Under the pieces are notes generated by a model. The model searched no databases, was not told the DNA's origin, and saw only the letters and a program-made list of their open reading frames with translations. A DNA stretch of 64,000 nucleotides from Spirochaetae bacterium HGW-Spirochaetae-3 (GTDB lineage Bacteria > Spirochaetota > Spirochaetia > Treponematales > UBA12059). The translations under genes and the position numbers were made by a program. Shown piece after piece: positions 12,846-35,907 of the stretch. Location: contig PGXV01000007.1 of NCBI GenBank assembly GCA_002839315.1, forward strand, positions 65,934 through 129,933, read 5' to 3'. The first letter of the stretch is position 1; every line of letters begins with the position of its first letter.

Positions 12846-12887
12846 TGCTGCCTCCTAGATATCCACAAGAAATTTCAGGACAGCGGA

Positions 12888-12915
12888 ATCATACCATACT
12901 AAAATGCTTTGTCAA
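12888..12915 (-). promoter_or_regulatory. Sigma70-like promoter TTGACA-N16-TATGAT for DUF969-DUF979-pcp
   Basis: In the AT-rich 102-nt gap the minus strand reads ttgaca (12915-12910) and tatgat (12893-12888). A leader with AGGAGG follows before ATG 12845. Confidence 0.5.
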
Positions 12916-12947
12916 ATCATTGTAATCTTTTAATAAGCATCATCATC

Positions 12948-19970: not shown

Positions 19971-22292
19971 ATGAAAAGCCTCTTGAAGAAAGCCGGTGAG
20001 ATACGCGTCGCCGCCGGATCGGAACTCCGGGCCAACGGAGATTTTACGTTCGACGCGGCTTCGGGCATATCGGCCGAAGACCAGAAAGTCATTCTCCTCC
20101 ATATAGACCGCGTGTCTCGTTCCAGCCGCATACTGGCCGGGCCCGATACCTGGAAGGTAAAGCCCCGGAAGCGCGGTATCGCGCTGCCGCTTGTCGTCAA
20201 CCTCGCGGGGCTGCTTATACTCGCCGGCGGGCTGTACGGCATCACGCTGGTCTTCCGGACCAGCGGGGAGGCTACGGCCTCGGGCTCCGAGCTGTTGTCG
20301 TCCGCGGAGGGCCGATTACTACAGGAGATAAAGCGCGAAGCCGAGGGGCGGATACTGGAGAAGGACCGGGAGATCGCGACGATACAACAACGCATGGCCT
20401 CGCTCGACAAGGAGCGCGATCAGTTGCTCGCGAGCGTCGAGTCCCGCGTCAAGGCGAAGGAGGAGGAACTCCGGAGCCAGCTCCAGGTCGAACTCGAAAG
20501 AGAACGCGAGCGCCTCGTCGCCGAAGGGCTATCGGACGCCGTAATCCAGGAAAGGCTACGCGAATTCGAGAGGCGCAAGACCGAGGAGTTCAGGACCCAG
20601 CTGGACGTCTTCGCGAAGAAGGCCGAGGCGGATCGGGTGGCGCTCCAGGCCAATCTGGACAGGGCGCGCGACGAGTACCGCAAGGAGCTATCGGACCTGA
20701 CCGTGGAACGGCAGCGGATACAGGACGAATCGCGCTTGCGCGAGCAACAACTGAGGGTCCAGCTCGACGACAGGAACAAGGCCCTGGAAGCGGAGCGCGC
20801 CAAGACCGCCGACAGTCTTCGTAGCGCTCAGGCCGAGCTGGCTCGCTGGAACGAGGACTCGTCCCGGGCCAAGTCGGCCGAGGACCGGCTCGTAGGCCTG
20901 TATGCCGCCATTCGGCAGTCCTTGCGCGACGGCAGGCTGGACGACGCCCAGGCGACCCTCGCGTCGTTGCGTGCGTACCTCGCCGATCCCCAGGTCGCCG
21001 TCATAGCTGGCCTCCAGCCCAGGCGCGAGCTCGACCTGTTCGCCGTCGACCTCATAGAGCGGACCATCTCCCAGGAGCGGACCAAGTCGTCGGTAGACAC
21101 GACGCGCGTAACCGCGTCGATGGACGCCCTGGCCGTCGTCCGCGACGAGACCGGGAAGGCGCGCGCGGCGCTGGCCGCCGGAGACGCGGCCGGGGCTGGC
21201 GCGGCGTATCGGAGGGCGCTCTCGGCGACCCGTGAGCTCGAGGAGGCGGGCGCCTTTATCGAGGGTTCGTGGAAGGCGAGGCTGGCGGAGCAGGCGTCCG
21301 AGCTCGGTATAGACGAGGCCTCGGTCAAGGCCGCCCTGGGCGGCGTGGAAGCCTCCGCCGAGGACGGGGCGGCGCTCGAGACGGCCTTTTCGCGGCTCCT
21401 GTCCAACCTGCCGATCGGTCCCGGCGACGCGTCGCTCGTCTACGGCTACGTCAAGTCGGCCGGGGCGAGGGACGCGGAAGCCGCGAGGCGCTCGGCCGAT
21501 ACGACGGCGGCGACGGTTCCCCTGCGGCGCGCCGCGGCCGCCTACTCCGACGGTCGCCTGCTCGAGGCCATCCGCGGCTACTCGTCGGTGCTGTCGCGGT
21601 ATCCGTCCGCTAGTCAGTCGGCGCGCGCGGCCGAAGGCGTCAACCTGTCCGCGACCCGGCTAGCGACCGCCCTGGAGGATTCCGAGAAGCGGGCCGCGGC
21701 TCGCGTCGCCGAGCTGGAAACGAGCCTCGCCGCCGCCCGGCGGGACATCGCGGCCCTGAACGAGAAGGCGCCCGGCGCTTCCTCCGGCGCCGCCGCCGCC
21801 GGTACGCCGTCCGCTGCTCCCCCGGCCGCCGCGACGGCCGGCGGTACCGCTGACGGGGCGACCCGCGCCGAGATAAGCGCGCTGCAGGAGGAGAAGGCCA
21901 GGACCGAGGCGGCGCTCGCCGAGGCCACGGCCAGGTACGAGGCCGTGGCCTCGGCGTACCGCGCTTACTCGGCCGAGGAGGACGCTATACTCGGGCGGGG
22001 CGGCGACCTGGCCATCGTCGAGGCGCGCTCGAAGCTTGACGCGTTCCTGTCGAGCGCCGACGTGTCCGAGGCCATGCCCGGTATGCGCGACCGCATAGCC
22101 CGCTACCTGGAGTCGTTCCAGGCGGCCGGGCAGAGGGAAGTGCTCTTCAACGCGGCCGATATCGTCGACGGCGCCTCACGTATCCGCGACGCGGCGACGA
22201 GGGACCGCTACTTCCGCGACCTGGAAGGCCGATACGCAGGCAACGAGTCCATGCTGGAGTTCCTGGCTACCGTGAGGGCCGGCTTCAGGTAG
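19971..22292 (+). CDS. Membrane-anchored coiled-coil / Ala-rich repeat protein, function unknown
   Basis: 773 aa. It has one TM segment (ALPLVVNLAGLLILAGGLYGITLVF), then about 250 aa of heptad-like charged sequence (ELRSQLQVELERERERL...), and then an Ala-rich helical region. A TATAAT box lies 9 nt upstream of the ATG. Confidence 0.75.
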   Translation: MKSLLKKAGEIRVAAGSELRANGDFTFDAASGISAEDQKVILLHIDRVSRSSRILAGPDTWKVKPRKRGIALPLVVNLAGLLILAGGLYGITLVFRTSGEATASGSELLSSAEGRLLQEIKREAEGRILEKDREIATIQQRMASLDKERDQLLASVESRVKAKEEELRSQLQVELERERERLVAEGLSDAVIQERLREFERRKTEEFRTQLDVFAKKAEADRVALQANLDRARDEYRKELSDLTVERQRIQDESRLREQQLRVQLDDRNKALEAERAKTADSLRSAQAELARWNEDSSRAKSAEDRLVGLYAAIRQSLRDGRLDDAQATLASLRAYLADPQVAVIAGLQPRRELDLFAVDLIERTISQERTKSSVDTTRVTASMDALAVVRDETGKARAALAAGDAAGAGAAYRRALSATRELEEAGAFIEGSWKARLAEQASELGIDEASVKAALGGVEASAEDGAALETAFSRLLSNLPIGPGDASLVYGYVKSAGARDAEAARRSADTTAATVPLRRAAAAYSDGRLLEAIRGYSSVLSRYPSASQSARAAEGVNLSATRLATALEDSEKRAAARVAELETSLAAARRDIAALNEKAPGASSGAAAAGTPSAAPPAAATAGGTADGATRAEISALQEEKARTEAALAEATARYEAVASAYRAYSAEEDAILGRGGDLAIVEARSKLDAFLSSADVSEAMPGMRDRIARYLESFQAAGQREVLFNAADIVDGASRIRDAATRDRYFRDLEGRYAGNESMLEFLATVRAGFR

Positions 22293-22313
22293 GGGCGTGG
22301 CCGGGGCGCGCTA

Positions 22314-23354
22314 TCAGTCGGCCAGGTCCGCGAGGCTCGCCGTAGGTATCTCGTATATCTCTACCAGGAGCTCGCCGTCGTCGTCGTGGTTGCTGGTCCG
22401 GACGAAGACGCTGCGCGTGAATACGGCCTTCATCAAGAGCGCCGTCGCATCGTATCGCTCGTGCACGAAGCGTAACCGTCCGGCCGGGAACGAGAATAGG
22501 CGGTTTAGGTCGAGGCCGAGGACGCTGACGATGCCGTCCTTCTCCGCCAGCAGGCGCCCGTCGGACAGCGCGCCGATCAGGGGGCCGTAGTCCTCGGGGT
22601 ACCGGGTCGGCTGCAGGATCGTCGGGGCCGACCATCGATACGCTGCTCGGGAACCGTCCGCCAACCCGCAGGACAGATAGTAATATCCGCCCGCGGACAG
22701 GAATCTGCCTGGTGACGATACCGCTGGAGCGTTCGCGAAGAGCATGCTCGTCGTTCCCGATAAGTCAGGCGCTCCGGAGGACCATGATACCGTCGAGAAC
22801 TGCGGATCGCTGACGTTCGGGTACGTATAGCAGGTCAGCGCCGCCTGGTTGGCCCCTGTCAGCGCGACAGAGCCAATGCCGAACGGGCCCAGCGTCGTCG
22901 CCATCGTCGCGTCGGTAGGGGTCCATGTCGTCAGATCGAGGTATCGGCCGGTGCCAGAGTCCGTAACGATGAATGCCGCGGCGGTTCCGTCCGGCGCGGC
23001 CTGGACCAGGTACGCGTCGCCCAGGGAATTGCTTCGCTCGTCGTAGTAGTAGGTGCTTCCCGTATGGTAGGCCGCGTCGATGCTGACGTTCCTGAGCCCG
23101 AGCTTCGCTCCGATATCGAGCACGAGCAGGCCGGCGGTCGGGATATCGGTTAGCTGGGGCGCGAACCAGGCGTCCTCCATGCCGTAGCTGTTCACGCCGT
23201 AGACGGTAAAATATAGGACGGGGTCGCCCAGCTTCCCTATCGTCAGCTCGGACGCCGAGATGGACGGGTCGAAGGTCGGGTGCCAGCACGAGGCCGTTAA
23301 CGCCGTCGCGGCCGCGATCGCCGTCGCGGCCAAGATCCGAATGAGTCGCCTCAT
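22314..23354 (-). CDS. Hypothetical lipoprotein (gene 5 of the cyclase operon)
   Basis: Track ORF trimmed to ATG 23354, which overlaps the upstream stop (ATGA). MRRLIRILAATAIAAATALTASC is a signal peptide plus lipobox. The Gly/Ser/Thr/Tyr-rich composition looks beta-rich. It shares an (A/I)(A/R)YRW(S/G) motif and overall character with 24574-25581. Confidence 0.7.
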   Translation of the reverse strand: MRRLIRILAATAIAAATALTASCWHPTFDPSISASELTIGKLGDPVLYFTVYGVNSYGMEDAWFAPQLTDIPTAGLLVLDIGAKLGLRNVSIDAAYHTGSTYYYDERSNSLGDAYLVQAAPDGTAAAFIVTDSGTGRYLDLTTWTPTDATMATTLGPFGIGSVALTGANQAALTCYTYPNVSDPQFSTVSWSSGAPDLSGTTSMLFANAPAVSSPGRFLSAGGYYYLSCGLADGSRAAYRWSAPTILQPTRYPEDYGPLIGALSDGRLLAEKDGIVSVLGLDLNRLFSFPAGRLRFVHERYDATALLMKAVFTRSVFVRTSNHDDDGELLVEIYEIPTASLADLAD

Positions 23355-24577
23355 AGCGTTAACCTCGCGCCGAAGCGCAGGATCGGCGCCTCGAGGAACC
23401 ATCCGTCGCCGAAGGCGGTGCCCACGGGGCCGCTCCTGTCAGTGCCCGCGCTGGCCGCCATCAGGAAACCGTCGCAGAACGGGTAGAACGCGGCGCCCAG
23501 CTCCAGGAACACGGCGACCCGCGGCGTCACGCCCCATTCGGCGCCGAGCATCCCGCTCGTGCCGATCGGCGCCACGGGATCGAACCTGAGCGGCGCCCAT
23601 GACGCGACGAGGACGCGCGCGAAGAACGTTCCGGTAGCGTACGGCCTTACGTACGCGTCGGGAGCGAGGAAGTATCCGCCGAAGCCTATCCCGGGCTGCA
23701 CGAGGGGCAGGGAGATGATGGCCGACGGCGTCTCGACTCCGTATTCCTCGCCGACGAGGTAGAGCCCCGCGAGGAACTGCGTCAGTCCGAAGCGGACGTA
23801 CAGGTAATCCTCCGCGAAGCGCCACGCGCCCCAGACGTCGAGGAATTGCGTCATATACAGCCCCGCCTCGACGGTCCAACGGCGTAGCGGCGAGCGCGGG
23901 ATGGTCAGCGACACGCCCTGCTCGAGCGCGCCGAAGTAGCCGCGTTCCGGGTAGGCGCCCTTCGACGTGGCGCGCCAGGGGTAGGTGCCGGGCACGCGTA
24001 GGGGAACCTCGAGGAAGCCTTCCTCGGGTATGACCAGGTCTGTCTCGCCCAGGCCGCCGCGGTCCTTCCCCGCCTGTCCCGTGATACGGGTGCCCGGGGC
24101 GCCTTCGATGCGGACGAGGGTCTTCTTTACCCTCGGCAGAGCCGCCTCGGCGGCGTCGGCCACCGCTATCCACCAGAATTCCGCGAGGTCGCGTTCCGTC
24201 GGCTCCGGGCCCTCGACGACGCCGGACGAGAGCGTCTCCCCGGTCAGCGGGTCGAGCACGCGCCAGGACGAGCGCGCGTCTCCGGACGGCAGGGTCTCGC
24301 TCGTCGCCTCGATAGCCAGCGCGCAGGACGCCTTGGAAGCGGCCTCGACGATGTCGACGCCGTCCGGAGCGAGGAGTATCGCGTCAAGCGACGCTGTCCG
24401 CGCTAATGCGGCGGCGAACGACGACTGGTCGGCCGCCTTGCCCGTGCCGCCTGAGCGCGCCATCGCGCGTATACCTTCGTCGTCGGCGCGCGCGGTCCCC
24501 GGAGCGGCCGCCGCGAGCGACGCTACGATGCAGAAGGCAATGGGTAATGTCGGGAAGCGCGCTCTGCGTACCGTCAT
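23351..24577 (-). CDS. Hypothetical secreted protein, PEGA-like middle region + beta-barrel-like C-terminus (gene 4)
   Basis: Trimmed to ATG 24577 (ATGA overlap). It has a signal peptide (PIAFCIVASLAAAAPGTARA). The C-terminal ~200 aa are rich in alternating aromatic and Gly residues (GLYMTQFLDVWGAWRFAEDYLYVRFG...GAEWGV...FLELGAAF). The architecture parallels 25578-26882. Confidence 0.7.
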   Translation of the reverse strand: MTVRRARFPTLPIAFCIVASLAAAAPGTARADDEGIRAMARSGGTGKAADQSSFAAALARTASLDAILLAPDGVDIVEAASKASCALAIEATSETLPSGDARSSWRVLDPLTGETLSSGVVEGPEPTERDLAEFWWIAVADAAEAALPRVKKTLVRIEGAPGTRITGQAGKDRGGLGETDLVIPEEGFLEVPLRVPGTYPWRATSKGAYPERGYFGALEQGVSLTIPRSPLRRWTVEAGLYMTQFLDVWGAWRFAEDYLYVRFGLTQFLAGLYLVGEEYGVETPSAIISLPLVQPGIGFGGYFLAPDAYVRPYATGTFFARVLVASWAPLRFDPVAPIGTSGMLGAEWGVTPRVAVFLELGAAFYPFCDGFLMAASAGTDRSGPVGTAFGDGWFLEAPILRFGARLTL

Positions 24578-25581
24578 TCCCACCACGTCCTCAGCTTGTA
24601 CATCCGCCCGCTTAAGCGGTCGAATACGAACCACCAGGTACCGCTCGGGTCGAACGACAGTATGCGAATATCGTCGTCCTCGAAGAGCAGCGAGTCCAGT
24701 TCCTCGGCCCCGGCTCCCGTCGCGAAGTCTCCGGTGCCCCATCTGTATCGGATGAGCCTGTTCCTGCCGTTGTCTCCCCGGTAATACGCGACCGGGCCGC
24801 CCTCGGTCAGCCACGCCATCTGGTCGGCGACGGGGAAGGGCCCGGTCCGGGTAGCGGACGCCGAGTCGAAAACGGTGTCCGCCGTCGTGAAGAGCAGGGC
24901 CGTGGCGAACGACGCAGCGTAGCCGTAGCCTGAATACTGAAGCTGCGCGAGCACGCTATAGCCGTTGGCGTAGTCGGCGTCGAGTAAGTTGTACATCGAT
25001 GCCGAGCCGTCGTAATCGCGGATGGCGCTACCGCCAGGGCTCCATGCGGCGTCGTATTCCTCGAAACTAGCCTGTTGCGAAGAATTTTGGTCGATGGCGT
25101 AGGTAGAACCAGAGCCCGGGTCCCCGACTCGGAAGGCGCGTACGTTCGACGAGTCGTTCCAGACGATGGGAGTGCCGGTTGAATTATCGATCGGGTCAAT
25201 TATAGCTCCGCCGCATAGGAATCCGCCGGCCGTGTTGCCGAGGGCCCGCCTAAAACCTGCGTCGGTCAACGCGACCTCCCCGCCAAGCCCGCCGGCGTTG
25301 AACAAGAGAAGCCGGGACGCCGAATTACCCGAGGCGAATACCAGCGCCTTCGAGTAGTCCGTTCCACCGGTGACGAACGGCGCGTACTCGAGGTTCTCGA
25401 TCGAAGGGTCGTCCCCCAGGCCGTTAGCCTCCGCTATGGATCGGAAGTCGACGCTCGCCTCGACGTACGACAGCCAGCGGGGGAAGGCGTCGTCGGTGAG
25501 GAACGCGCAGGTCGACGACAGCGCCGCGGAGAGGAGCAGTATCGTCGCGCGGAAGGCGCGGGGCGCGAAAGACGGTTTCAT
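24574..25581 (-). CDS. Hypothetical lipoprotein (gene 3)
   Basis: Trimmed to ATG 25581 (ATGA overlap); ATG 25587 is an alternative. MKPSFAPRAFRATILLLSAALSSTC is a signal peptide plus lipobox. The composition looks beta-rich and the protein ends in WWFVFDRLSGRMYKLRTWWE. Confidence 0.7.
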   Translation of the reverse strand: MKPSFAPRAFRATILLLSAALSSTCAFLTDDAFPRWLSYVEASVDFRSIAEANGLGDDPSIENLEYAPFVTGGTDYSKALVFASGNSASRLLLFNAGGLGGEVALTDAGFRRALGNTAGGFLCGGAIIDPIDNSTGTPIVWNDSSNVRAFRVGDPGSGSTYAIDQNSSQQASFEEYDAAWSPGGSAIRDYDGSASMYNLLDADYANGYSVLAQLQYSGYGYAASFATALLFTTADTVFDSASATRTGPFPVADQMAWLTEGGPVAYYRGDNGRNRLIRYRWGTGDFATGAGAEELDSLLFEDDDIRILSFDPSGTWWFVFDRLSGRMYKLRTWWE

Positions 25582-26882
25582 GGCCATTTCAGCATCACCC
25601 CGGCCGCGAAGGTCATAGGCCCCGTCGCGGTCTCCCACCAGCCGCGCCTCAGGAGGCCGGAGCCCAAGCCGAACGAGTACGACAGGCGCTGTTCCAGGAA
25701 CGCGGCCCAGGTCGGCTCGTGCCACTCGAACGAAAGGCACGCCGCGTCCAGTGAAAGGTCGAAATAGAACTTACGCTCCAGGTCGGACGGGAACAGGATC
25801 GTCGCTATCCCCGACAGGCCGGCGCCCGCGGCGAAGCGGAATTTGGAATGGGGCGGCAGGAAAAGGTACGCTCCGGCGCCAATGCGCAGCTCGTCGTGCA
25901 GTACCGGCACCGAGCCCGTGGTAAAGGCCGACTGGAGCCATAGCGAGTCGCCCGCCCGGAGGAACACGGAGTCGGGCATCAGGTGGTAGCGGTAGTCCGC
26001 CGATACCCCGAAGAGCCGGGAGGTAGTCAGGCCGGCCGATAGCGCGTGGCGCGTCCTGGGCATAAGCGCGGGCAAGGGTATAGGCGCGTCCGCTTCCGCC
26101 GGCCGGAACACGGCCGTCCTGGGCCAGTACCCGTCCCTGGCCATAGAGACGACGACGGGATCCCCGGCGCGGAACGCCACGAACGGCGCGACGAGGCCAC
26201 CGTCGGCGACGACGCCGGCCGGCCTGGCGTCGTTGCCGGTGCCGAAGGCGACGGTCGCGCCGTCGTCGTCGGAAAGGAACCTGAGACGGTACTCGATGGG
26301 CGGCCCCGGCGCGACGCGGTTCCGGAGCGCCCCGGCCTCCTTCGCGACCCCGGCGGCGCTCTCGTCGATCAGCGTGAAAGCCGACAGGCCCGCGAAAGCG
26401 CCCTGGGTATCGGCCGCGACCATCGCGCCGTCTATGAAGTCGAATACGGATATACGCCAGATGGCCCTTTTACGCTCTATCGAGCAGGCTACTATCGCTA
26501 CCCACCTGGCGCCCGAGTCGCCGTGGACGGCGGCCGCCAGGTTCGCGTCCCCGGCCGCGCCGCCCTCCGTGGCGGGCCCGGCGTACGGCTCGGGCGCGCG
26601 GAACCCGGCCGAGGCGAGTTCCCGCACGAGCGCTACCGACAGGGCGTCGGCGAACGTCGCCGCTTCGTCGACGGAACCGACGACGGCGACCGTTATAGCG
26701 TCCCGCATTACCGATCGTCGTGCGGGAATAGCCGTCGTCGCGGGAGTCGCCGGCGCCGTAGCGCCTTCCGCCGTTTCCTGCGAGAACGCCGGCCACGCCG
26801 CCATGGCCGCGGTCACGGCTATCGCCGCCAGAGCGCGAAGCGAGGCGGTTGATAGAACCCGGAGCGCTACGTTCGGCCTCAT
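25578..26882 (-). CDS. Hypothetical secreted protein, PEGA-like middle region + beta-barrel-like C-terminus (gene 2)
   Basis: Trimmed to ATG 26882 (ATGA overlap with the cyclase stop). It has a signal peptide (LAAIAVTAAMAAWPAFS), and its C-terminal part has alternating hydrophobic and aromatic strands (FGVSADYRYHL...LRIGAGAYLFL...RFAAGAGLSG...). Confidence 0.7.
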   Translation of the reverse strand: MRPNVALRVLSTASLRALAAIAVTAAMAAWPAFSQETAEGATAPATPATTAIPARRSVMRDAITVAVVGSVDEAATFADALSVALVRELASAGFRAPEPYAGPATEGGAAGDANLAAAVHGDSGARWVAIVACSIERKRAIWRISVFDFIDGAMVAADTQGAFAGLSAFTLIDESAAGVAKEAGALRNRVAPGPPIEYRLRFLSDDDGATVAFGTGNDARPAGVVADGGLVAPFVAFRAGDPVVVSMARDGYWPRTAVFRPAEADAPIPLPALMPRTRHALSAGLTTSRLFGVSADYRYHLMPDSVFLRAGDSLWLQSAFTTGSVPVLHDELRIGAGAYLFLPPHSKFRFAAGAGLSGIATILFPSDLERKFYFDLSLDAACLSFEWHEPTWAAFLEQRLSYSFGLGSGLLRRGWWETATGPMTFAAGVMLKWP

Positions 26883-28543
26883 TTCTCGTGCAGGACCTCG
26901 ACCCCGTCCCAGTCCGCCGGAGGCGGATCGGCCGCGTAGCGGTCGCAGCGCTCCGACATCATCGTCGACGCGTAGTCGTCCGGCCCGAGCTCGTCGGTGA
27001 CCGAGCGGAACATGATCGACGCCTCGCGGAAGCGCCTGGCGCCGTACATCGCCATCGCCTCGTCGTGGACCGCCCAGGCCTTGGCCTCGAGCTCGGAAAT
27101 CGCGCGCCTGGCGGTGTATATGCGGACGCCCTTGGTCTTGCCCTTGACCGCCACCGTGTCGAGGAGCCTGCACGGGAATTCCCCCCGCACCTTCTCATAG
27201 AGGAATTCGGAGAATACCAGCGGCTGCCTGTACGGTTTCGTCAGGCCTTCCAGCCTGGACGCGAGGTTGACCATGTCGCCTATCACCGTATAGTCCATCT
27301 TCTTGTCGCAGCCTATGTTACCGACGGTGACGATGCCGTAGTTGATGCCTATGCCTATCTTGAACTCCGGCTTGCCCGCCGCTACCTGATTGCGGTTGAA
27401 CGTGTCGAGCGCCTCGGTCATCTCGAGCGCCGCGAGCACCGACGAGACCGCGTCGTCGTCGTGCTTCACGGGAGCGCCGAAGAACGCCATGATAGCGTCG
27501 CCTATGTACTTGTCGATGACGCCGTGGCGCTCCATGAGGATGTCGACCATCGTCGAGAAGTAGCGGTTGAGCGAGTTGACGAGGTCGTCCGGCCGCATAG
27601 CCTCGGAGATCGTCGTGAACGACCTGATATCCGAGAATAATACGGCCAGCTCCCTGTTCTCTCCGACGAGCATCGCCTCCGGGTTCTTGAAGAACCGGTC
27701 GATCAGCTCCTGCGGCACGAACTTCTGGAAGATATGGCGTATCTTCTCTTCCTTCTTCTGGGCCAGCACCGCCTCGAAGGCGTACTTCTTTATCTGGTCG
27801 TAGGCCTTCTGGAGCTCGTCGAGCATGATGTTGAAGGTATGGGACAGCGTGCCTATCTCGTCGGCGAACTCCACGGGCACGCGCTCCGACATGTCGCCGG
27901 AATCGATGATGCGCCGCATCGCGACCACCATGGTCGACAGCGGGCCGGTCATGTACCTGACGAAGAGCAACACGAGCAGCGTGGCGATGACGATGGACGC
28001 CGCCAGTATCGCGAGCGTGCCGCGGGTAATCGCGTCGACGTCGCCGAAGAACGCGCTGCGTTCCTCGGTCACGATCGCGTACCAGCCGAAGGGCCCGAAC
28101 GGGAAGCCGGACGCCGCTCGCTCCACGCCTCCTAGCCGTATCGACTGGAATCCACGCGCCCCCGCCTCGAACAGCCCGGCGAGGGCCTCGGACTCCTCCG
28201 GGAGCGCGTCGACGGCGGCCGTCCGCATTACGATGGTCCCGTCACGCCTTATAGCGACTATCGTCTCGGTGGAGCTCCTGACGATGCTACGGGCGAACGA
28301 CTCCACGCCGGCTTGAGCCGCCGCGACCATGTCCGGGCGATCCGCGACGTCGTTCTCCACGAGGAGGTTCCATTGCCCTTCGGCGTACTTCTCGAGCTCC
28401 GACGCCTTGAAGTCCAGGAATTCGGTGGCTATCCGCGTTACTGCGCCCGTAGCGGCCACCTGGCTGGACATGCCGGCCAGGACGACCGCGACGACGAGGA
28501 TGGGTAGGACGACGAGTACTATCTTCAGGCGTATGCTCACCAC
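26879..28543 (-). CDS. Membrane sensor adenylate/guanylate cyclase (2 TM + periplasmic Cache-like domain + HAMP + class III cyclase + TPR-like tail)
   Basis: 554 aa. The two TM segments are LPILVVAVVLAGM and LAILAASIVIATLLVLLFV. It also shows a HAMP-like segment, LAVLFSDIRSFTTISE, KYIGDAIMAFFGAP and DYTVIGDMVNLASRLEG. The GTG start lies just after a TATAGT box. Confidence 0.9.
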   Translation of the reverse strand: MVSIRLKIVLVVLPILVVAVVLAGMSSQVAATGAVTRIATEFLDFKASELEKYAEGQWNLLVENDVADRPDMVAAAQAGVESFARSIVRSSTETIVAIRRDGTIVMRTAAVDALPEESEALAGLFEAGARGFQSIRLGGVERAASGFPFGPFGWYAIVTEERSAFFGDVDAITRGTLAILAASIVIATLLVLLFVRYMTGPLSTMVVAMRRIIDSGDMSERVPVEFADEIGTLSHTFNIMLDELQKAYDQIKKYAFEAVLAQKKEEKIRHIFQKFVPQELIDRFFKNPEAMLVGENRELAVLFSDIRSFTTISEAMRPDDLVNSLNRYFSTMVDILMERHGVIDKYIGDAIMAFFGAPVKHDDDAVSSVLAALEMTEALDTFNRNQVAAGKPEFKIGIGINYGIVTVGNIGCDKKMDYTVIGDMVNLASRLEGLTKPYRQPLVFSEFLYEKVRGEFPCRLLDTVAVKGKTKGVRIYTARRAISELEAKAWAVHDEAMAMYGARRFREASIMFRSVTDELGPDDYASTMMSERCDRYAADPPPADWDGVEVLHEK

Positions 28544-28546
28544 TTA

Positions 28547-28574
28547 ACTATACACGACGTCCGCCTCTATTCAA
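28547..28574 (-). promoter_or_regulatory. Promoter TTGAAT-N16-TATAGT of the cyclase operon
   Basis: The minus strand reads cttgaat agaggcggacgtcgtg tatagt taa GTGGTG. The predicted start site falls at or inside the first codons, so the exact start codon is uncertain. Confidence 0.5.
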
Positions 28575-28709: not shown

Positions 28710-29732
28710 ATGAAGAGGATATCGATAATACATACGGGCGGCACTTTTTCCATGCAACCGGACGACGAGGGCCTGCTGGCGCCGGGGAATTACGCCCTCG
28801 ACTATATCCAGAAGACCGTGCCCCCGCTGTTCAACGCGGAATTGCGCCAGAAACAGCTCTTCAACCTGGACTCGTCGCTTTTCAGGCCGGAGCACTGGGT
28901 AGCCATCGCCCGCGAGATATGCGAGACCTACGACGACTATGACGGGTTCGTCGTGGTCCATGGCACCGATACCATGGCGTATACCGCGAGCGCGTTGTCG
29001 TTCTTCCTCAAGAACCTCGAGAAGCCGGTCGTCCTGACCGGTTCCCAGATCCCGCTGACCATGAAGCGTAGCGACGCCCTCGGCAACCTCATCGCCGCCG
29101 TCGAGGTCGCCCACTCGAGCGATATAAAGGAAGTCGCCGTCCAGTTCAACAATACCGTCTTCAGGGGTAATCGAACCAAGAAGAAGACCGCCTCCGATTT
29201 CGACGCGTTCTATAGCCCCAATTACCGGCCGCTCATCCAGCTCGGTATAGTCATGGAGCAGTTCCATAACAGGTTCTTCCATTCGCCGGCAGGCGTGTTC
29301 GAGATAGATACGAGGCTCGACCCGCACGTCCTCCTCGTCCCGATCTTCCCCGGATTCGATTTCTCCACCATCATACCGACGGTTCAGGAGGGGAGGACGA
29401 AAGGCCTGGTCGTGGAGGCCTACGGCAGCGGTAACGTTCCGAGCGACGACCCCGGCCTCGAAGAATTCTTCAAGGCGGCCGCCGACATGAAGGTGCCCGT
29501 AGCCGTATGTAGCCAGTCGCCTATGGGCAAGGTCAACCTGAAGCTGTACAAGGTAGCCTCGAGGGCGGATTACTACGGCCTCATCTCCGCCGTCGACATG
29601 ACGCGGGAGGCTACTATAGTCAAGCTCATGGTAGCCCTGGGGCGGTTCTCGGACCTGAAGAAGATAAAGCAGTTCATGCAGCTCAATATCGCCGGCGAGA
29701 AAGAGGACGAGGGCCCGGCCGAACGGGCCTGA
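28710..29732 (+). CDS. ansA: L-asparaginase, type I (cytoplasmic)
   Basis: ISIIHTGGTFSM (catalytic Thr motif), FVVVHGTDTMAYTASALSF and the GSQIP context. Confidence 0.92.
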   Translation: MKRISIIHTGGTFSMQPDDEGLLAPGNYALDYIQKTVPPLFNAELRQKQLFNLDSSLFRPEHWVAIAREICETYDDYDGFVVVHGTDTMAYTASALSFFLKNLEKPVVLTGSQIPLTMKRSDALGNLIAAVEVAHSSDIKEVAVQFNNTVFRGNRTKKKTASDFDAFYSPNYRPLIQLGIVMEQFHNRFFHSPAGVFEIDTRLDPHVLLVPIFPGFDFSTIIPTVQEGRTKGLVVEAYGSGNVPSDDPGLEEFFKAAADMKVPVAVCSQSPMGKVNLKLYKVASRADYYGLISAVDMTREATIVKLMVALGRFSDLKKIKQFMQLNIAGEKEDEGPAERA

Positions 29733-29859: not shown

Positions 29860-31230
29860 TCATCCGTTCGTATACCCCGGCGCGTCCCTCGCGCCGACGA
29901 GCGGTAGAACGTCGATGAGCTTCCTGTATTTCGTCTCGCTGGCTATCAGGTTCCGTTGGGCCAACGCGCGCTCGGTAATATCCTGTACCACCCCCGTTAC
30001 CAAGGTGGGCTCGCCGCGCTCGCTCCTGTGGAGCTCGGCGACCGACCAGATAATCCTCGTACGCTCCTGGCCCTTCGGACGTATCTCGAATTCTAGGTTA
30101 TACACGGCGTCGTGCTCTATCAGGTCGATCAGCGCCTGGTGCACACGATCGCGCTCCAGGATGCGCGATTCGACCTCGTCGGGAGAGAATCCCTCCTCGT
30201 CAGGATCGAAGCCGTAGATTCGCTTCGCCTCGTCCGATCCCCAGAACGAGTCCGTTCTCAGGTCGTATTCCCAATTCCCGACACGGCCGATACGCTGGGC
30301 CTTCAGGTAGCGCTCCTCCGAGGTCCGTAACCTTTCCAAGGCCAGGTGACGCTCGGTTATATCGACGGCTAAGCCCTCGAACCCTATTACTGAGCCCGAT
30401 TCGTCCCTCAGGGGACCCGCGCTCGACGAATGCCGACGCCACGAGCCGTCGAGGTGCCTCGCCCGATATTCTATATCCTCGATTCTCCTGCCCGACTCTA
30501 TCGCCTCGCTAAGACACGCCCTGCAGGCGGGGACGTCGTCCGGGTGCACGAAAAGCTCGAACGGCTGGCCTATCACGCTCGATAGGGGGTGCCCGAGCAC
30601 GCGCGTCCAGGCCGGGGATACGAAGGTGAAGATCCCGTCGGGGCTGAGGATGTAGATGATGTCGTGGCTGCTCTCTACGAGCTCCCGGTATTTCTTCTCG
30701 CTAAGGGATAGTAGTCTGCTGGATTCATCTACCATTGCGTTGGCGGCGTTAAGCTCTTCGATCGTCTGCAGCAGATCATCGTTGGCGACCTGCATCTCTT
30801 CGTATGCCGCCTCCATGTCATCGCTCTGCGCCTGTATTTTCTTCTTGGCCTCGAATAGCTTGAACGCCATCCTTATTCCTGCAACGAGTACCGTCTCTCC
30901 TGAATTCTTGACGATATAGCCGTAGGACGTTATGCCCTCGGTTTTTTCTACTGTCTCTCTTTCCGTATACGAGGACAGGAATACCAGCGGGAGTTCGCGT
31001 TCGCGCAGAATGCGGGCAGCCGCCTCGGTACCGTCGATCCCGTCGCCGAGGTTGATGTCCATGAGGACGAGGTCTATCCGGCTATCTCCGGCGGCGGCGA
31101 TTACCGCCTTCTCGCCAGACGACGCGCTTACGACCGCGTATCCGTATGCTTCGAGCGTCCGCTTGCCCGCCAAGGCTATGATGGCCTCGTCTTCGACCAG
31201 GAGTATAGTCTTCCCGTTGTCGTCGCGCAT
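29860..31230 (-). CDS. Response-regulator receiver + two PAS domains, no output domain (apparently C-terminally truncated)
   Basis: I trimmed from the TTG at 31284 to ATG 31230, which is preceded by GGGGAGGG. KTILLVEDEAIIAL...DLVLMDINLGDGIDG is a REC domain. Two PAS units follow, each introduced by SE(K/E)(K/R)Y. A third SETKYRKLIDVLP linker starts and then stops after about 20 aa. Confidence 0.85.
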   Translation of the reverse strand: MRDDNGKTILLVEDEAIIALAGKRTLEAYGYAVVSASSGEKAVIAAAGDSRIDLVLMDINLGDGIDGTEAAARILRERELPLVFLSSYTERETVEKTEGITSYGYIVKNSGETVLVAGIRMAFKLFEAKKKIQAQSDDMEAAYEEMQVANDDLLQTIEELNAANAMVDESSRLLSLSEKKYRELVESSHDIIYILSPDGIFTFVSPAWTRVLGHPLSSVIGQPFELFVHPDDVPACRACLSEAIESGRRIEDIEYRARHLDGSWRRHSSSAGPLRDESGSVIGFEGLAVDITERHLALERLRTSEERYLKAQRIGRVGNWEYDLRTDSFWGSDEAKRIYGFDPDEEGFSPDEVESRILERDRVHQALIDLIEHDAVYNLEFEIRPKGQERTRIIWSVAELHRSERGEPTLVTGVVQDITERALAQRNLIASETKYRKLIDVLPLVGARDAPGYTNG

Positions 31231-31314
31231 GCCGCCCTCCCCAGCGTCAAGTATCGTTGACGCGGAGGAGTCTGTCGACGGCAATCTATCAGTAGCGAGC
31301 TGTTTCCACGGCGC

Positions 31315-33330
31315 CTACCGGAGCGCCCGCGACGAGTTGAGCACCGCGAGTAGGGCCACGCCGACGTCGGCGATCACGGCTTCCCACATGGCCGCCATGC
31401 CGAACGCGCCGAGACCGAGGAACGCCAGCTTGACGCCGAGCGCGAATACGATGTTCTGCTTGACGATGCGCCTCGTGCGCTTGGCCCGCTCTATGGCCTC
31501 GGCGACGCGCGAAGGCTCCCCGCTCATCAGCACGACGTCGGCGCTCTCCACGGCGGCGTCCGATCCGCCGCCCATCGCTATGCCGGCGTCCGCCCTGGCT
31601 AGCACCGGCGCGTCGTTGACGCCGTCGCCGACGAATATGACCGAGCCTCGGCCGCGCTCCTGCCCGAGTATCTCCTCGAGACGCTGGAGCTTGCCCTCTG
31701 GCAGGAGGCCGTGGTGGACCTCGTCTATCCCGGCCTCGCGGGCCGCGCGCTGTGCCGACGCTCCCGAGTCTCCCGTCAGCATGGCGACGCGGCGAATGCC
31801 GAGCCCGCGGAGGCTATCCAGCGCGGCCCTGCCGTCGGCCTTCAGCGCGTCGCCGACGCCGATGCGCCCGGCGTAGCGTCCCGCGATGGCGACGTGTATC
31901 TCGGTTCCCGACGCGGGCCTGCAATCGTGCGGCACGCCCTTGAGGTGCAATAGCCTGTCGCCGCCCGCGAGCACCTCGTGGCCGCCCATCATCGCCACGG
32001 CGCCGTGGCCGGGTATCTCCGCGTACGAGCCGTCGTCGCATCGCGGCCGGGGCTTTCCCGTGCTTTCCCACGCCTCCCTGATCGCTACCGCGAGCGGGTG
32101 GTTCGAATGGGTCTCCGCCGCTACCGCGCCGCCGAGCAGGGCTTCCTCGTCGAAACCGTCCTCCGGGGCTATCTCCCGGACGCTGAAGCTGCCGTCGGTA
32201 AGCGTGCCCGTCTTGTCGAACACCACTGTTCTCGCGTCGGCGAGCGCGTCGAGGACCGAGGCGCCCTTTATCAGGATGCCGCGCTTGGCCGCCCCGCCCA
32301 GGCCGCCGAAGTAGCCGAGCGGCACGCTTATGACGAACGCGCAGGGGCACGATATGACGAGCATGACGAGGGCGCGGTAGGCCCAGTCCGCGAAGGACTG
32401 CCCCGGAACCAACAGCGGAGGGATCAGGGCGACGAGCAGGGCCGCGACGACGACCGCCGGCGTGTACCATTTCGCGAAACGCGCGATGAACAGCTCGGTC
32501 CTGGCCTTCGCCTTCGACGCGTTCTCGACAAGCTCGACGATGCGGGCGGCCGACGACTCCGCGGCGACGCGCTCCGCCCGTATCGTGACGGCGGCGTCCG
32601 TCGCTATGAAGCCCGACAGCGCCTCGGCGCCCGCCTCTATCGGCCTCGGCGCGCTCTCGCCGGTCATCGCCGACGTATCGAAGGATCCGGAGCCCTCGAC
32701 GACGGTACCGTCGACCGGTACGCGCTCGCCGGGGCGGACGAGCACGAGGTCGCCCGGTTCGACGTCCTCGGGACCGCAGTCGACCCATTCGTCGCCGCGG
32801 CGGACCCGCGCCTTGTCGGGCCGCATCGCCAGTAGCGACCGAATGGAGCGCCGGCTCTTGTCGGCCGCGCCCTCCTGCATCATCTCGCCGATTTTATAGA
32901 AGACCATGACGCCTATGGCCTCTTCCATCGCGCCTATCGCGAAGGCGCCGAGCGACGCTATCGCCATCAGGAACAGCTCGTCGAAGACCTTGCCGCGGGC
33001 TATGTTCCTGGCCGCCGAAAAGAGTACGTCGCGGCCTGCCAGGAGATACGCCGTCGCGAAGACGAGCGTCGACGCTACCGGCAGCCAGGCGGCGGCGCCT
33101 GGCCGGTTCGCGGCCGCCTGCGCGAAGAATCCGCCTATCGCTATCGCGGCGGCCGCCGCCAGCGTCGCGATCTCCCGCTTCGTCCCTCGGGAAAGACCCG
33201 CGGGATCGTCCGCTGGCGCCGGCTTGAAGGCGTCTACCCGCGCCTGTTCGTGTACAGAGCAGGAGGCGCAGCAGGCCGTCTCGGGTACGGTCTCATCGTA
33301 TGAGTGTGTGTCTGGCGAGTAGTCGCGCAT
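31315..33330 (-). CDS. Heavy-metal translocating P1B-type ATPase (Zn/Cd/Pb-type CPC motif)
   Basis: VISCPCAFVIS (CPC), FDKTGTLT, GDGVNDAP and TGES. The N-terminus has CCASCSVHE instead of a canonical GMxCxxC HMA domain. Confidence 0.92.
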   Translation of the reverse strand: MRDYSPDTHSYDETVPETACCASCSVHEQARVDAFKPAPADDPAGLSRGTKREIATLAAAAAIAIGGFFAQAAANRPGAAAWLPVASTLVFATAYLLAGRDVLFSAARNIARGKVFDELFLMAIASLGAFAIGAMEEAIGVMVFYKIGEMMQEGAADKSRRSIRSLLAMRPDKARVRRGDEWVDCGPEDVEPGDLVLVRPGERVPVDGTVVEGSGSFDTSAMTGESAPRPIEAGAEALSGFIATDAAVTIRAERVAAESSAARIVELVENASKAKARTELFIARFAKWYTPAVVVAALLVALIPPLLVPGQSFADWAYRALVMLVISCPCAFVISVPLGYFGGLGGAAKRGILIKGASVLDALADARTVVFDKTGTLTDGSFSVREIAPEDGFDEEALLGGAVAAETHSNHPLAVAIREAWESTGKPRPRCDDGSYAEIPGHGAVAMMGGHEVLAGGDRLLHLKGVPHDCRPASGTEIHVAIAGRYAGRIGVGDALKADGRAALDSLRGLGIRRVAMLTGDSGASAQRAAREAGIDEVHHGLLPEGKLQRLEEILGQERGRGSVIFVGDGVNDAPVLARADAGIAMGGGSDAAVESADVVLMSGEPSRVAEAIERAKRTRRIVKQNIVFALGVKLAFLGLGAFGMAAMWEAVIADVGVALLAVLNSSRALR

Positions 33331-33332
33331 TC

Positions 33333-33704
33333 CTATCCTTTCCTTTCATCCAGGTGAGTAGTCGCGATGCCGACGATCTCTCTGACGTGGTCGTCGTCAA
33401 GCGCATAGAACATAGACTTGCCGTCGCGCCTGGCCCTGACGAGGCGGGCGCCGCGCAGCACGGCCAGCTGGTGGCTAACGGCGGACTGGCTCATGTCGAG
33501 CGCGACGGACAGGTCGCAGACGCACAGCTCCGCGGCGCCGAGCGCGTTCAGGATGCGCAGGCGGCTCGGGTCTCCGAGTACCTTGAACAGCTCTGCGAGG
33601 TCGAGTAGCCTTGAGACCGGCGCTTCCGCAGCCCTGGCGGAAGCAACCGGGCCTTCATGCACTATCGAGCACGAGCAGCGGTCCTGTTCGGGTTCGTCTT
33701 TCAT
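33333..33704 (-). CDS. ArsR/SmtB family metalloregulator (CadC-like)
   Basis: ELCVCDLSVALDMSQSAVSHQLAVLRGARLV is a winged HTH with a CVC metal site. An N-terminal CSCS is also present. The stop lies 2 nt before the ATPase start. Confidence 0.9.
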   Translation of the reverse strand: MKDEPEQDRCSCSIVHEGPVASARAAEAPVSRLLDLAELFKVLGDPSRLRILNALGAAELCVCDLSVALDMSQSAVSHQLAVLRGARLVRARRDGKSMFYALDDDHVREIVGIATTHLDERKG

Positions 33705-33727
33705 CGTCGTCTCCGATTATAAGTGAA

Positions 33728-33749
33728 CATATGAACAAATGATCATATG
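33728..33749. promoter_or_regulatory. Imperfect inverted repeat CATATGAaCA-aa-TGaTCATATG, candidate ArsR/SmtB operator next to a TATAAT box
   Basis: Read directly in the AT-rich leader of the cadC-like gene. The TATAAT box (33721-33716, minus strand) lies 11 nt upstream of ATG 33704. Confidence 0.55.
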
Positions 33750-33806
33750 TAATAATATCGAACCCCGCGCGTCGTGGCAAGCCCTCCTGGCCGGCTCCTT
33801 CCTTCC

Positions 33807-35054
33807 CTAATTCTCGAGGATCGTTATCTCCACCCGCCTGTTGCGTGCCTTGCCGGCCTCGGTCGAGTTGTCGGCGACCGGCTTCTCCGCGCCGTAGCCG
33901 AGTACTGTTATCGCCTCGGCCTCGCGGACGCCTAGCCGGATCAGCTCGTCGGCTACGGCTCGGGCGCGTTCGACTGACAGCTGTTGCCTGGCTACCGCGG
34001 TGCCGGCGAGCGCCGTGTGCCCGCTGACCTGGATGTCGCGCCCCTTTATCCCGGCGAGCAGCGACGCGATCTTCTCTATCTTGGCGAGTTCAGGCGGCGA
34101 CAGCCGCGCCGAGTCCGCCTCGAACTGGATATTCTCGAGGCTAATCGTGACGCCGCGCTCGTCGCTCGTCACCGTGACGTCGTCGAGGCCGGAGACCGCG
34201 TCGCGCATCTCCTCCTCCAGCCCGGCGCGGTCCATCAGCTTCGCCTCGACGACGTCGGCGCCCGCCTCGCCGCGGTACTCCACCGTGCGGCCGTCCGACA
34301 GCTCGAAGACGAACTTGAAGCGCTCCTCGTACGCCGCGAGCCCGCCGCGCTCCTGGTCCCAGTACAGAAGCTGGTCCGAGTAGCCGGCGATCTGCGTGGG
34401 CCAGGCGATCGTCCACGAGCGCGGCCTGGGCGGCTGGACGAAGACGGTGTAGGCGGCGCGCACGAGCCTGACCGGCTTGCCTTCCAGCGTGCCCGGGCCC
34501 TCGTAGGTATAGCGGACGTCTATCGGTATGAGGTATGGATCGGGTATGCCGAAGTCCTCGCGGAAGTCGTGGCGCTCCTCGCCGGGGGCGTTCCAGGTGT
34601 CGCCGGGCTTGAGGTCCCGGGCCGGGAAGGTAGGGACGTGCCTGACCGTCGGCATGTAGTACTCGGGCGCTATATCGTAGCGGCCGTCGGGCGCCTGCCA
34701 GTACTCGGAGCGGTATATCCTGTCGGCGACGTAGGAGAAGCCGCCGGCGTACTGCACGCTCGTGGAGAAGTCGCCGCGCAGGAGGCCCGACCCGTCGGCG
34801 CGCGTATCGGCGACCTCGAAGGCTATACGGTTGACGATCCTGGCCGAGTGCGAATAGCGGCGGTTGACGTAGACGTCCTCGTCCACCGTGGAGACGACGC
34901 GGTACTTGTCGCCGGTCTCGTACTGGAATCGGAATTCGTCGGCGCCGGCCGGCGCCGCCGCCGCCGCGGCCGAGAGCGCGGCGAGGGCCGCGATGGCGAA
35001 CGCCGAATGTCTCGCCCCGGTACCTCCCGCCGATCGTCGTGCTTGTCGCGTCAT
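33807..35054 (-). CDS. OmpA-domain protein with an uncharacterised N-terminal domain
   Basis: It has a signal peptide (AIAALAALSAAAAAAPAGA). The C-terminus shows FEADSARLSP...VSGHT...LSVERARAVADEL...GYGAEKPVADNSTEAGKARNRRVEITI, an OmpA/MotB peptidoglycan-binding motif. Confidence 0.85.
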   Translation of the reverse strand: MTRQARRSAGGTGARHSAFAIAALAALSAAAAAAPAGADEFRFQYETGDKYRVVSTVDEDVYVNRRYSHSARIVNRIAFEVADTRADGSGLLRGDFSTSVQYAGGFSYVADRIYRSEYWQAPDGRYDIAPEYYMPTVRHVPTFPARDLKPGDTWNAPGEERHDFREDFGIPDPYLIPIDVRYTYEGPGTLEGKPVRLVRAAYTVFVQPPRPRSWTIAWPTQIAGYSDQLLYWDQERGGLAAYEERFKFVFELSDGRTVEYRGEAGADVVEAKLMDRAGLEEEMRDAVSGLDDVTVTSDERGVTISLENIQFEADSARLSPPELAKIEKIASLLAGIKGRDIQVSGHTALAGTAVARQQLSVERARAVADELIRLGVREAEAITVLGYGAEKPVADNSTEAGKARNRRVEITILEN

Positions 35055-35118
35055 GCTTCGCCGCCTTTCCCGTCCTCTATAGTGTCGGTACTAGTATAGC
35101 GCGGGAAGAGAGCCGGGC

Positions 35119-35904
35119 TCAGGCCTCGGGCGGCTTCCGGCAGAAGTCGACCGTCCGCTCCGCGTATCCGAAGCCGACGGATTCGTAGATGCGCCTGACC
35201 GAGCCGTCCTCGGGCACTATGACGAAGCGGAGGCCGCCACGGCGCCGTCGCTCGGCGTCGCAGGCCGCGAACAGCAGCGACCTGCAGATTCCCCTGCGCC
35301 TATAATCGGGATGCGTCTCGACGTTCCTGAATCGCGCGAGGCCGTCGCGGATGAACAGCCCCATCTGGCCCACCGCAATGTCGCCGTCCCACGCGCCCCA
35401 CCAGAGGCCGTCTCCCCGTTCCACCGCCCTGCGGGCGGCCGAGAAGCTCCGTTCTACGTAGCCGCGCGAGTAGCCGGGACTGCCCGCGTTCACGGTCCGG
35501 CTCGTCTCCACGCCGGCCGCCCAGTCCGAGTCGGATATGAACGGCCTGTATTCGACGCCCTCGGCGGGAGGCCCGGCCGGCCGCGGGGCTTCCGCGCTCA
35601 GCACGTCGTAGGCGCGCGCCTCGTATCCCGCCGCCTCGAAGCGCCCCGCGGCGCCCATGTCGCCGTCGATCCCGTCCACGAGGAAGACGCGATGGGCGCA
35701 TCCCGGTAGCTCGGCTCTGAACAGGCGCTCCCACGCGTCGAGGTCGCCGTCGGCCGGCGGCCCGGGCATGGCGATGCAGTTCCCGTACCAGTAGTCGGGC
35801 ACGGAAGGCGTCCGGAGGACGATATAATCGCCCTTGTCCTCGACGAGCCCGAAGGAACGCTGTATATCGAGCGTCGTCCTGAGCGCTAGCGACGCTACGC
35901 GCAT
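35119..35904 (-). CDS. GNAT family N-acetyltransferase
   Basis: VETHPDYRRRGICRSLLFAACD is an acetyl-CoA binding (R/Q)xxGxG/A-like motif. The start lies 3 nt after the pyk stop. Confidence 0.75.
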   Translation of the reverse strand: MRVASLALRTTLDIQRSFGLVEDKGDYIVLRTPSVPDYWYGNCIAMPGPPADGDLDAWERLFRAELPGCAHRVFLVDGIDGDMGAAGRFEAAGYEARAYDVLSAEAPRPAGPPAEGVEYRPFISDSDWAAGVETSRTVNAGSPGYSRGYVERSFSAARRAVERGDGLWWGAWDGDIAVGQMGLFIRDGLARFRNVETHPDYRRRGICRSLLFAACDAERRRRGGLRFVIVPEDGSVRRIYESVGFGYAERTVDFCRKPPEA

Positions 35905-35907
35905 GCC

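Follow-up and report, generated by a model that had tools for sequence, protein, structure and literature searches.

Enterobacteria sense envelope stress through outer-membrane lipoproteins and beta-barrels, of which the Rcs system and NlpE-CpxA signaling are the familiar examples. To our knowledge, the described reporters of envelope state (Rcs, Cpx-NlpE, sigma-E, and Fec-type systems) end in phosphorelays or sigma factors, and we know of none that ends in cyclic AMP (cAMP). Spirochaetes carry their flagella in the periplasm, and little is known of how they monitor their envelope; class III cyclases are abundant in these bacteria, and the signals to which they respond are mostly unknown. In this study, we analyzed a gene cluster in a 64,000-nucleotide (nt) stretch of DNA, hereafter the window, from the metagenome bin HGW-Spirochaetae-3 (contig PGXV01000007.1 of assembly GCA_002839315.1, positions 65,934 to 129,933 of the forward strand). 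On the minus strand of the window, at 22314-28574, five genes designated G1 to G5 are joined at four ATGA start/stop overlaps that can be read directly in the sequence, and a sixth gene, G6, converges on them from the other side. G1 is predicted to encode a membrane-bound adenylate cyclase, and the other products are predicted to be envelope proteins. We favor, tentatively, a reading in which the six genes constitute an envelope module of Treponematales-like spirochaetes that would reach from the outer membrane into the cytoplasm and act as a trans-envelope sensor controlling cAMP synthesis.

The conservation of the gene order indicates that the six genes belong together. We compared the window with 18 related loci, two of which (L001 and L002) were reached via distant G2 homologs and 16 of which came from a species-representative genome collection, where all were Spirochaetota metagenome bins. 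Searches by tblastn with the six window proteins found the order cyclase-G2-G3-G4-G5 in all 18 as far as the contigs extend, with a reversed G6 after G5 wherever the contig reaches it and with G2 identity falling to 38%. Two further loci raise the number of Spirochaetota metagenome loci that keep this order to 20: L054, which has the full layout and was located via a G5 homolog at only 32% identity, and L057, in which the cyclase is followed by G2 and the contig then ends. Whether homologs of the partners are linked to a cyclase in other genomes had been set beforehand as a test that could refute the sequence-only reading of this DNA; when it was run, the linkage was found in these 20 loci. 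The junctions themselves are also conserved. Among the 18 loci, nearly all of these junctions have overlaps of 4 to 10 nt (no call was obtained for two), in the form of ATGA, GTGA, ATGGTAG/ATGGTGA, or a start codon 10 nt ahead of the stop, and the overlaps are therefore not a chance feature of a single genome. It could be argued that the genes are neighbors without a shared function, given that ATGA overlaps are frequent in compact high-GC genomes and that bacterial operons in general often contain four-base overlaps. We consider this very improbable, since order and overlaps persist down to 32 to 38% protein identity, the genes outside the block vary between more distant loci, and the linkage survives a rearrangement in a divergent locus, L053, described below.

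The overlaps depend on where each gene is taken to start. The sequence-only reading had trimmed several longer open reading frames (ORFs) and had described the result as a translationally coupled five-gene unit headed by a sensor class III cyclase, and both choices are upheld here. The trimmed G2 (P0001, CVV47_10605), G3 (P0038), and G5 (P0074, CVV47_10590) agree with the public gene calls of 434, 335, and 346 amino acids (aa), respectively, at 100% identity and 100% coverage, and the trimmed start of G4 matches the start position of its homologs. G3 has an alternative start, an in-frame ATG 6 nt upstream. Given the start/stop overlaps and a single conserved promoter, the products of G1 to G5 are therefore probably made together.

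The promoter that had been proposed in front of the first gene was located (Table 1), and its boxes are conserved across relatives. Alignment of 16 orthologous upstream regions showed a TTGAC(c)-like -35 box and a TATAGT-like -10 box at an equal distance from the start codon in most loci. In the window, TATAGT ends 6 nt ahead of the GTG at 28540; this 6-nt distance from the conserved GTG is kept exactly in about 12 of the 16 orthologous loci, most of which also have the TTGAC-like -35 box, and the conserved start context is GTG AGC ATA CGC. Among the four most distant loci, three carry a -10-like hexamer (TATGAT, TATAAT, or TATAGT) 7 to 8 nt ahead of an ATG. The conserved position of the GTG in orthologs indicates that G1 in the window probably starts at GTG 28540 and thus one codon later than the listed ORF, which begins at GTG 28543. 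The spacing between the -10 box and this codon suggests that the operon mRNA is initiated at GTG and is leaderless or nearly so. Such an mRNA, if produced, may bear on gene expression in spirochaetes.

The product of G1 has the layout of a transmembrane (TM) sensor cyclase, with TM1, a periplasmic domain, TM2, a HAMP domain, the catalytic domain, and a C-terminal helical extension; a hydrophobic segment at approximately residues 175 to 197 lies directly ahead of HAMP. The catalytic domain scores 87.9 bits with the Pfam Guanylate_cyc model, for which the cutoff is 21.9, and the best relatives of G1 in the Protein Data Bank (PDB) are the adenylate cyclases 6fht, 2w01, and CyaB (3r5g). When G1 is aligned with Pseudomonas aeruginosa CyaB (3r5g) and with 2w01, the motifs FSDIRSF, IDKYIGD, DYTVIGD, and VNLASRLE are conserved. 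We take these to supply the metal-binding Asp residues (FSDIRSF and IGD), the Lys (IDKYIGD), the Thr (DYTVIGD), and the Asn and Arg (VNLASRLE). Class IIIb adenylate cyclases are marked by an adenine-specifying Lys together with a Thr that replaces Asp, and they use Asn and Arg as transition-state residues. The alignment thus predicts that G1 is a two-TM, HAMP-containing class IIIb adenylate cyclase, which agrees with the two-TM HAMP class III cyclase that had been read from the sequence. The accompanying label "Cache-like" for its periplasmic domain was left unconfirmed: no Pfam Cache model, nor any other Pfam model of note, matched any of 11 orthologous periplasmic domains at E<=5, and the profile of the domain had no match among PDB sequences at E<=10. 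The Cache test was made at the level of sequence, and the domain may have a remote PDC fold. Across the related loci, the cyclase is the best-conserved protein of the set, at 58 to 84% identity with the periplasmic domain included, and the lipoproteins G3 and G5 are the least conserved. The strong conservation of the periplasmic domain fits a domain that has a fixed protein partner.

A cyclase next to membrane proteins also recalls the Pycsar anti-phage systems, in which the cyclase product would activate membrane effectors, and the cyclase domain of G1 does match PycC models of PADLOC, at best with an E of 3e-27. Such matches are to be expected of any class III cyclase, however, and none of the five partners matches a PADLOC defense model or contains a cyclic-nucleotide-binding domain recognized by Pfam. 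In addition, G1 is a HAMP-coupled transmembrane sensor with the adenylate-type Lys and Thr, and all loci examined have ordinary chromosomal genes around the block. With only the cyclase domain matching PADLOC and no effector carrying a domain that binds cyclic nucleotide monophosphates, we rejected this explanation, to which we attach next to no credence.

The second gene of the block encodes a secreted protein for which an AlphaFold2 model was built from a 32-sequence alignment (mean pLDDT, 81.3). The model consists of a signal-peptide helix, a disordered linker (residues 30 to 56), an alpha/beta domain (60 to 184), a small beta-sandwich (approximately 198 to 260), and eight long antiparallel strands (279 to 433) that form a barrel from the C-terminal 155 residues. 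Within the barrel, block-mean pLDDT exceeds 80 for the most part, and confidence is low around residues 311 to 330, 361 to 370, and 401 to 420. Foldseek matched the barrel to the OmpA transmembrane domain (1bxw, E of 6.3e-6; 1qjp, TMt of 0.80 and rmsd of 3.4) and further to NspA, OprF-N, OmpX, and Ail, and the strands show the alternating (dyad) hydrophobicity expected for a membrane barrel. The same search matched the N-terminal domain to PelC (5t10 and 5t11; E of 8e-4 to 4e-3, TMt of about 0.5), to the C-terminal domain of LpoB, and to TolB, and it found a weak structural match of the beta-sandwich to the carboxypeptidase N entry 2nsm (E of 9.6e-3). According to the model, G2 is an 8-stranded OmpA-like outer-membrane barrel with a PelC/LpoB/TolB-N-like domain and a beta-sandwich predicted to lie on the periplasmic side. 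The small outer-membrane barrel that had been suspected in the C-terminal part is thereby supported, and of the proposed "PEGA-like" segment the structural element is retained as the beta-sandwich, without a Pfam PEGA (PF08308) match at E<=1. G2 has a signal peptide of the signal peptidase I type, and no lipobox Cys was found in it.

G4 resembles G2 along nearly its whole length. The two families align by hhalign with a probability of 93% and an E value of 3.5e-7 over 322 collinear columns, from the N-terminal domain to the C terminus, and the single proteins align by BLASTP with an E value of 0.017. G2 and G4 are thus true paralogs of one architecture, as had been read from their sequences, and the domain order of G4 is predicted to be that of G2, namely signal peptide, N-terminal domain, beta-sandwich, and barrel. 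Neither protein has a match in Pfam at E<=1, including OmpA_membrane and OMP_b-brl, and 35 distant G2 relatives likewise gave no match to these two models. With the G2 profile, a full HMMER scan yielded 280 clusters (50% identity), of which 216 had E<=1e-10; the matches listed are mostly approximately 400 residues long and score with the G2 profile rather than with the G4 profile.

Each barrel gene is followed directly by a gene for a predicted lipoprotein, with stop and start codons overlapping. G3 has a nearly invariant Cys25 that follows the hydrophobic region of the signal peptide in LSTC-type boxes. In G5, Cys23 is invariant in 43 sequences, where it comes after A(A/S)SC and leads into a conserved CWHPxFDP motif. 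These lipoboxes are non-canonical by the rules of E. coli; non-canonical lipoboxes are common in spirochaetes. The conserved Cys at a lipobox-like site in both families supports the prediction, made already in the sequence-only reading, that G3 and G5 are lipoproteins. The AlphaFold2 model of G3, built from 31 sequences, is all-beta (pLDDT, 90.8; pTM, 0.84), and every listed Foldseek match is a propeller (Pizza6, NHL, neuraminidase, and BamB 4imm_B), with a TMq of at most 0.48. On the basis of this model, G3 is predicted to be a beta-propeller; it had no match to Pfam PQQ_2. G5 appears beta-rich by eye and had no match in Pfam or among PDB sequences, and hhalign self-comparison for propeller blades returned nothing for G5 and nothing for the positive control G3 either.

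Paralogy of G3 and G5 had been suggested from a shared YRW motif. This was not borne out: BLASTP between the two is not significant, and hhalign gives a probability of 1.9% with 10 G5 sequences and, with 43 G5 sequences, 7.9% (E of 0.0044 over 117 collinear C-terminal columns), which is suggestive at most. We therefore did not call G3 and G5 paralogs. The broader proposal of a duplicated two-component module accordingly stands for its barrel half, G2 and G4, and falls for its lipoprotein half, in which no homology is detectable; duplication holds for the barrels only. The statement that G2 to G5 belong to no named family was sustained. No match was found for G2 to G5 in Pfam and NCBIfam at E<=1, scans of all family members were likewise without a match, and profiles of G2, G3, and G5 found nothing significant among PDB sequences. 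Literature searches found no description of such a gene cluster.

The pairing of barrel and lipoprotein genes raises an explanation other than sensing, in which G2 and G4 would be export or surface-display devices and the cyclase a checkpoint. In one version, PelC-like rings and barrels would move a polymer; in the other, the barrels would help G3 and G5 to the surface. Slam moves its substrates to the surface, and OmpA-type barrels do so for RcsF. The likeness of the G2 N-terminal domain to PelC, a Pel export lipoprotein (E of about 1e-3), and the overlap of each lipoprotein gene with the barrel gene before it speak in favor of such a role. An 8-stranded barrel, however, has no open pore, and G2 is not a lipoprotein, unlike PelC; the conserved block contains no glycosyltransferase, polymerase, or inner-membrane export component; and the G3 model lacks the long disordered tether after the Cys that threading through a barrel would call for. 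We regard export or display as quite improbable.

The sixth gene, G6, was absent from the gene list of the sequence-only reading. It encodes a protein conserved along its full length and lies convergent to G5 in every related locus that is long enough. Approximately 68 N-terminal residues, predicted to be cytoplasmic and containing a conserved SGISxEDQ motif, precede a single TM segment (approximately residues 70 to 95), which is followed by about 680 coiled-coil or otherwise helical residues. The positive-inside rule, applied to the KVKPRKRG sequence ahead of the TM segment, predicts that the long helical region is periplasmic. G6 belongs to no Pfam family, and a profile search of the PDB found nothing significant. 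Of the parts, G6 offers the likeliest connection from the outer-membrane proteins to the cyclase. The stop codons of G5 and G6 are 21 nt apart, and a scan of the intervening 22293-22313 found no terminator-like hairpin; the 3' ends of the two transcripts may thus overlap.

A divergent branch of 35 metagenome loci, retrieved with a 10-sequence subgroup only about 25% identical to G2, shows how far this arrangement can change. G2, G4, G5, and the convergent G6 are still linked in four of these loci (L020, L025, L026, and L053). The cyclase is not found upstream of G2 in nine loci of this branch, and the hard-wiring of the cyclase by translational coupling, as the sequence-only reading put it, holds in the clade of the window and is therefore clade-specific. 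In L053 (1-6523), G2-G4-G5 lie on one strand without a G3 gene between G2 and G4, and G6 and a cyclase follow on the other strand, with the cyclase directly upstream of G6. Thus, the cyclase, G6, and the outer-membrane genes remain associated even where their order has changed.

Propellers recur in the divergent branch as well. The G3 slot of L026 is held by a lipoprotein of the Pfam Lactonase 7-bladed propeller family (7717-8835, plus strand), which has no similarity to G3 or G5. In L035, a Pfam PQQ_2/BamB-type propeller gene (8097-9596, plus strand) adjoins a lone G2-like gene, and in L030 the neighbor of a G2-like gene also belongs to a recognized propeller family (12823-13929, plus strand). 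The occurrence of Lactonase and BamB-like propellers beside G2-like genes argues for a recurrent barrel-plus-propeller partnership that draws on differing propeller families, a pairing that can be searched for elsewhere. The G4 slot of L026 (8835-11696, plus strand) and of L020 (2498-5356) contains an ORF of 953 aa with a signal peptide, a Pfam OMP_b-brl domain at residues 11 to 163, about 400 unassigned residues, and a full G4-like region at 598 to 953; its product would have two predicted barrels.

Taken with the predicted locations of the products, these data suggest how the module might work. G2-G3 and G4-G5 would form barrel-lipoprotein pairs at the outer membrane, and G6 would span the wide spirochaetal periplasm from the inner membrane to these pairs. 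Changes in the assembly would then pass via the cyclase periplasmic domain and HAMP and switch cAMP synthesis. The signal could be passed directly or through G6, which might sit beside the cyclase in the inner membrane, and possible triggers are damage to the envelope, the spacing of the membranes, or binding of a ligand to the propellers. A more specific version, in which an outer-membrane complex gates the cyclase via G6 so that cAMP would give a direct readout of the physical state of the outer membrane or of the width of the periplasm that houses the flagella, is possible but somewhat unlikely.

The principal competitor reverses the flow of control. In this explanation, G2 to G6 would form a complex that serves envelope structure or biogenesis; like Tol-Pal parts or BamA-BamB, it might, for example, anchor the outer membrane to the inner membrane or to peptidoglycan. 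The cyclase would be a co-expressed regulator that responds to some other cue and sets the level or activity of the module, so that cAMP acts on the module. A TolB-N-like domain and an OmpA-like barrel occur together in G2, BamB is among the matches of the lipoprotein propeller G3, G6 is TolA-like in being a single-pass protein with a long helical region, and outer-membrane genes of the divergent branch occur without an upstream cyclase, all of which speaks in favor of such a complex. Against it, Pfam found neither a TolQ/TolR-like motor nor a Pal-type OmpA_C protein in the conserved block of the window, L001, L002, and L054. The cyclase has a strongly conserved periplasmic domain of its own and stays physically linked to the set even after the rearrangement in L053, and Pfam found no cAMP-binding domain in any partner. 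We consider a structural complex rather unlikely.

Several observations nevertheless weigh against a sensor that controls cAMP synthesis. In nine divergent loci, the 2 to 10 kb of sequence available upstream of G2 contains no cyclase, and L053 is the only divergent locus that shows where the cyclase went; the outer-membrane module may thus work without a cyclase in some lineages. A cAMP receptor was not found in the locus, and control could run from cAMP to the module instead of from the module to cAMP. Sorting rules for spirochaetal lipoproteins differ from those of E. coli, and G3 and G5 could reside in the outer membrane, in the inner membrane, or at the cell surface. All of the source genomes are uncultured metagenome bins.

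The genes around the block differ in how they relate to it. A gene for a REC-PAS protein lies upstream of the cyclase, with an asparaginase gene between the two (Table 1). We did not count the REC-PAS gene as a seventh part of the module; its counterpart abuts the cyclase in L057 and is absent in L002. Farther upstream, the neighbors at 31315-37323 (minus strand) are syntenic with the close relatives L002 and L057: ORFs there correspond in size to the genes for pyruvate kinase and a 261-aa protein in these loci, and an OmpA_C protein and a P-type ATPase, both recognized by Pfam, come next. This is ordinary genome synteny outside the module. On the other side, an ORF of 1145 aa (12948-16385, minus strand) has a Peptidase_M14 (zinc carboxypeptidase) segment at residues 807 to 909 as its sole recognized part.

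Table 1. Positions in the window of the six genes, their predicted domains, the junctions, the promoter, and two neighboring genes
Feature	Position	Strand	Evidence or context
G1, predicted membrane sensor adenylate cyclase, 554 aa from GTG 28543	26879..28543	-	Pfam, PDB relatives, N-terminal alignment of 16 orthologs
G1 predicted periplasmic sensor domain, residues 28-178, ~150 aa	28010..28462	-	Alignment; mean column identity 77%
G1 HAMP domain, residues 193-245	27809..27967	-	Pfam PF00672, E 2.3e-11
G1 class III cyclase catalytic domain, residues 297-471	27131..27655	-	Pfam PF00211 Guanylate_cyc, E 8.2e-25
G2, predicted secreted outer-membrane protein, 434 aa	25578..26882	-	AlphaFold2 model, Foldseek
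G3, predicted lipoprotein beta-propeller, 335 aa	24574..25581	-	AlphaFold2 model, Foldseek, Cys alignment
G4, paralog of G2, 408 aa	23351..24577	-	hhalign, BLASTP
G5, predicted lipoprotein, 346 aa	22314..23354	-	Alignments
G6, predicted single-pass protein, 773 aa, convergent to the operon	19971..22292	+	Neighborhood conservation, alignment
G1/G2 junction, ATGA	26882-26879	-	Sequence
G2/G3 junction, ATGA	25581-25578	-	Sequence
G3/G4 junction, ATGA	24577-24574	-	Sequence
G4/G5 junction, ATGA	23354-23351	-	Sequence
Operon promoter: -35 TTGAAT, 16-nt spacer, -10 TATAGT	28547..28574	-	Consensus scan
REC and PAS protein without recognized output domain	29860-31284	-	Upstream of cyclase, same strand
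Asparaginase gene	28710-29732	+	Between REC-PAS gene and cyclase

If the proposed module does sense the envelope, the cluster would define five new protein families, one for each partner of the cyclase, and class III cyclases would have gained a further kind of input; in the version with gating via G6, the cyclase would be the first second-messenger cyclase gated by an outer-membrane complex. Membership in described families holds only for the cyclase, HAMP, and generic fold classes. G1 shares the class IIIb cyclase group and the TM-sensor-TM-HAMP-cyclase layout with CyaB of P. aeruginosa, with whose residues it aligns, and with the mycobacterial HAMP cyclases such as Rv3645. We know of no described HAMP class IIIb cyclase that is translationally coupled to outer-membrane proteins, and none was found in the literature.

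The likenesses of the partners are those of fold and arrangement. The barrel of G2 resembles the OmpA family (OmpA, OmpX, NspA, Ail, and OprF-N). In OmpA, the barrel is N-terminal and is followed by OmpA_C, whereas the predicted barrel of G2 is C-terminal and comes after two periplasmic domains. Residues 60 to 184 of G2 share the fold of PelC and of the LpoB C-terminal domain at about 15% sequence identity. PelC is a lipoprotein that forms a 12-mer ring and is encoded in the pel operon; G2, in contrast, has no lipobox, and pel genes were not found in the block. G3 recalls BamB as a predicted lipoprotein propeller encoded beside a barrel protein, and BamB is one of its structural matches. G3 matches propellers generically, however, and its partner is predicted to be 8-stranded, not a 16-stranded insertase with POTRA domains.

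At the level of the whole assembly, the likeness to Tol-Pal lies in the TolB-N-type domain of G2, the propeller of G3, which is like the C-terminal domain of TolB, and G6, which is like TolA. Searches of Pfam, NCBIfam, and the PDB (profiles) found no sequence similarity of the module to any Tol protein, and the arrangement differs in that the N-terminal domain and the propeller are here on separate proteins, with the N-terminal domain fused to an integral outer-membrane barrel. The closest functional analogs may be RcsF-OmpA/OmpC, which signals to IgaA in the Rcs system, and NlpE-OmpA, which signals to CpxA; in both, as would be the case here, a lipoprotein and a barrel report the state of the envelope to a signaling protein of the inner membrane. 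There is no sequence or family relationship between those systems and the module. Their output is a phosphorelay, whereas the output here would be a class III adenylate cyclase, which would receive its signal from two barrel-lipoprotein pairs, one of them with a large propeller in G3, together with the helical, predicted periplasmic part of G6.

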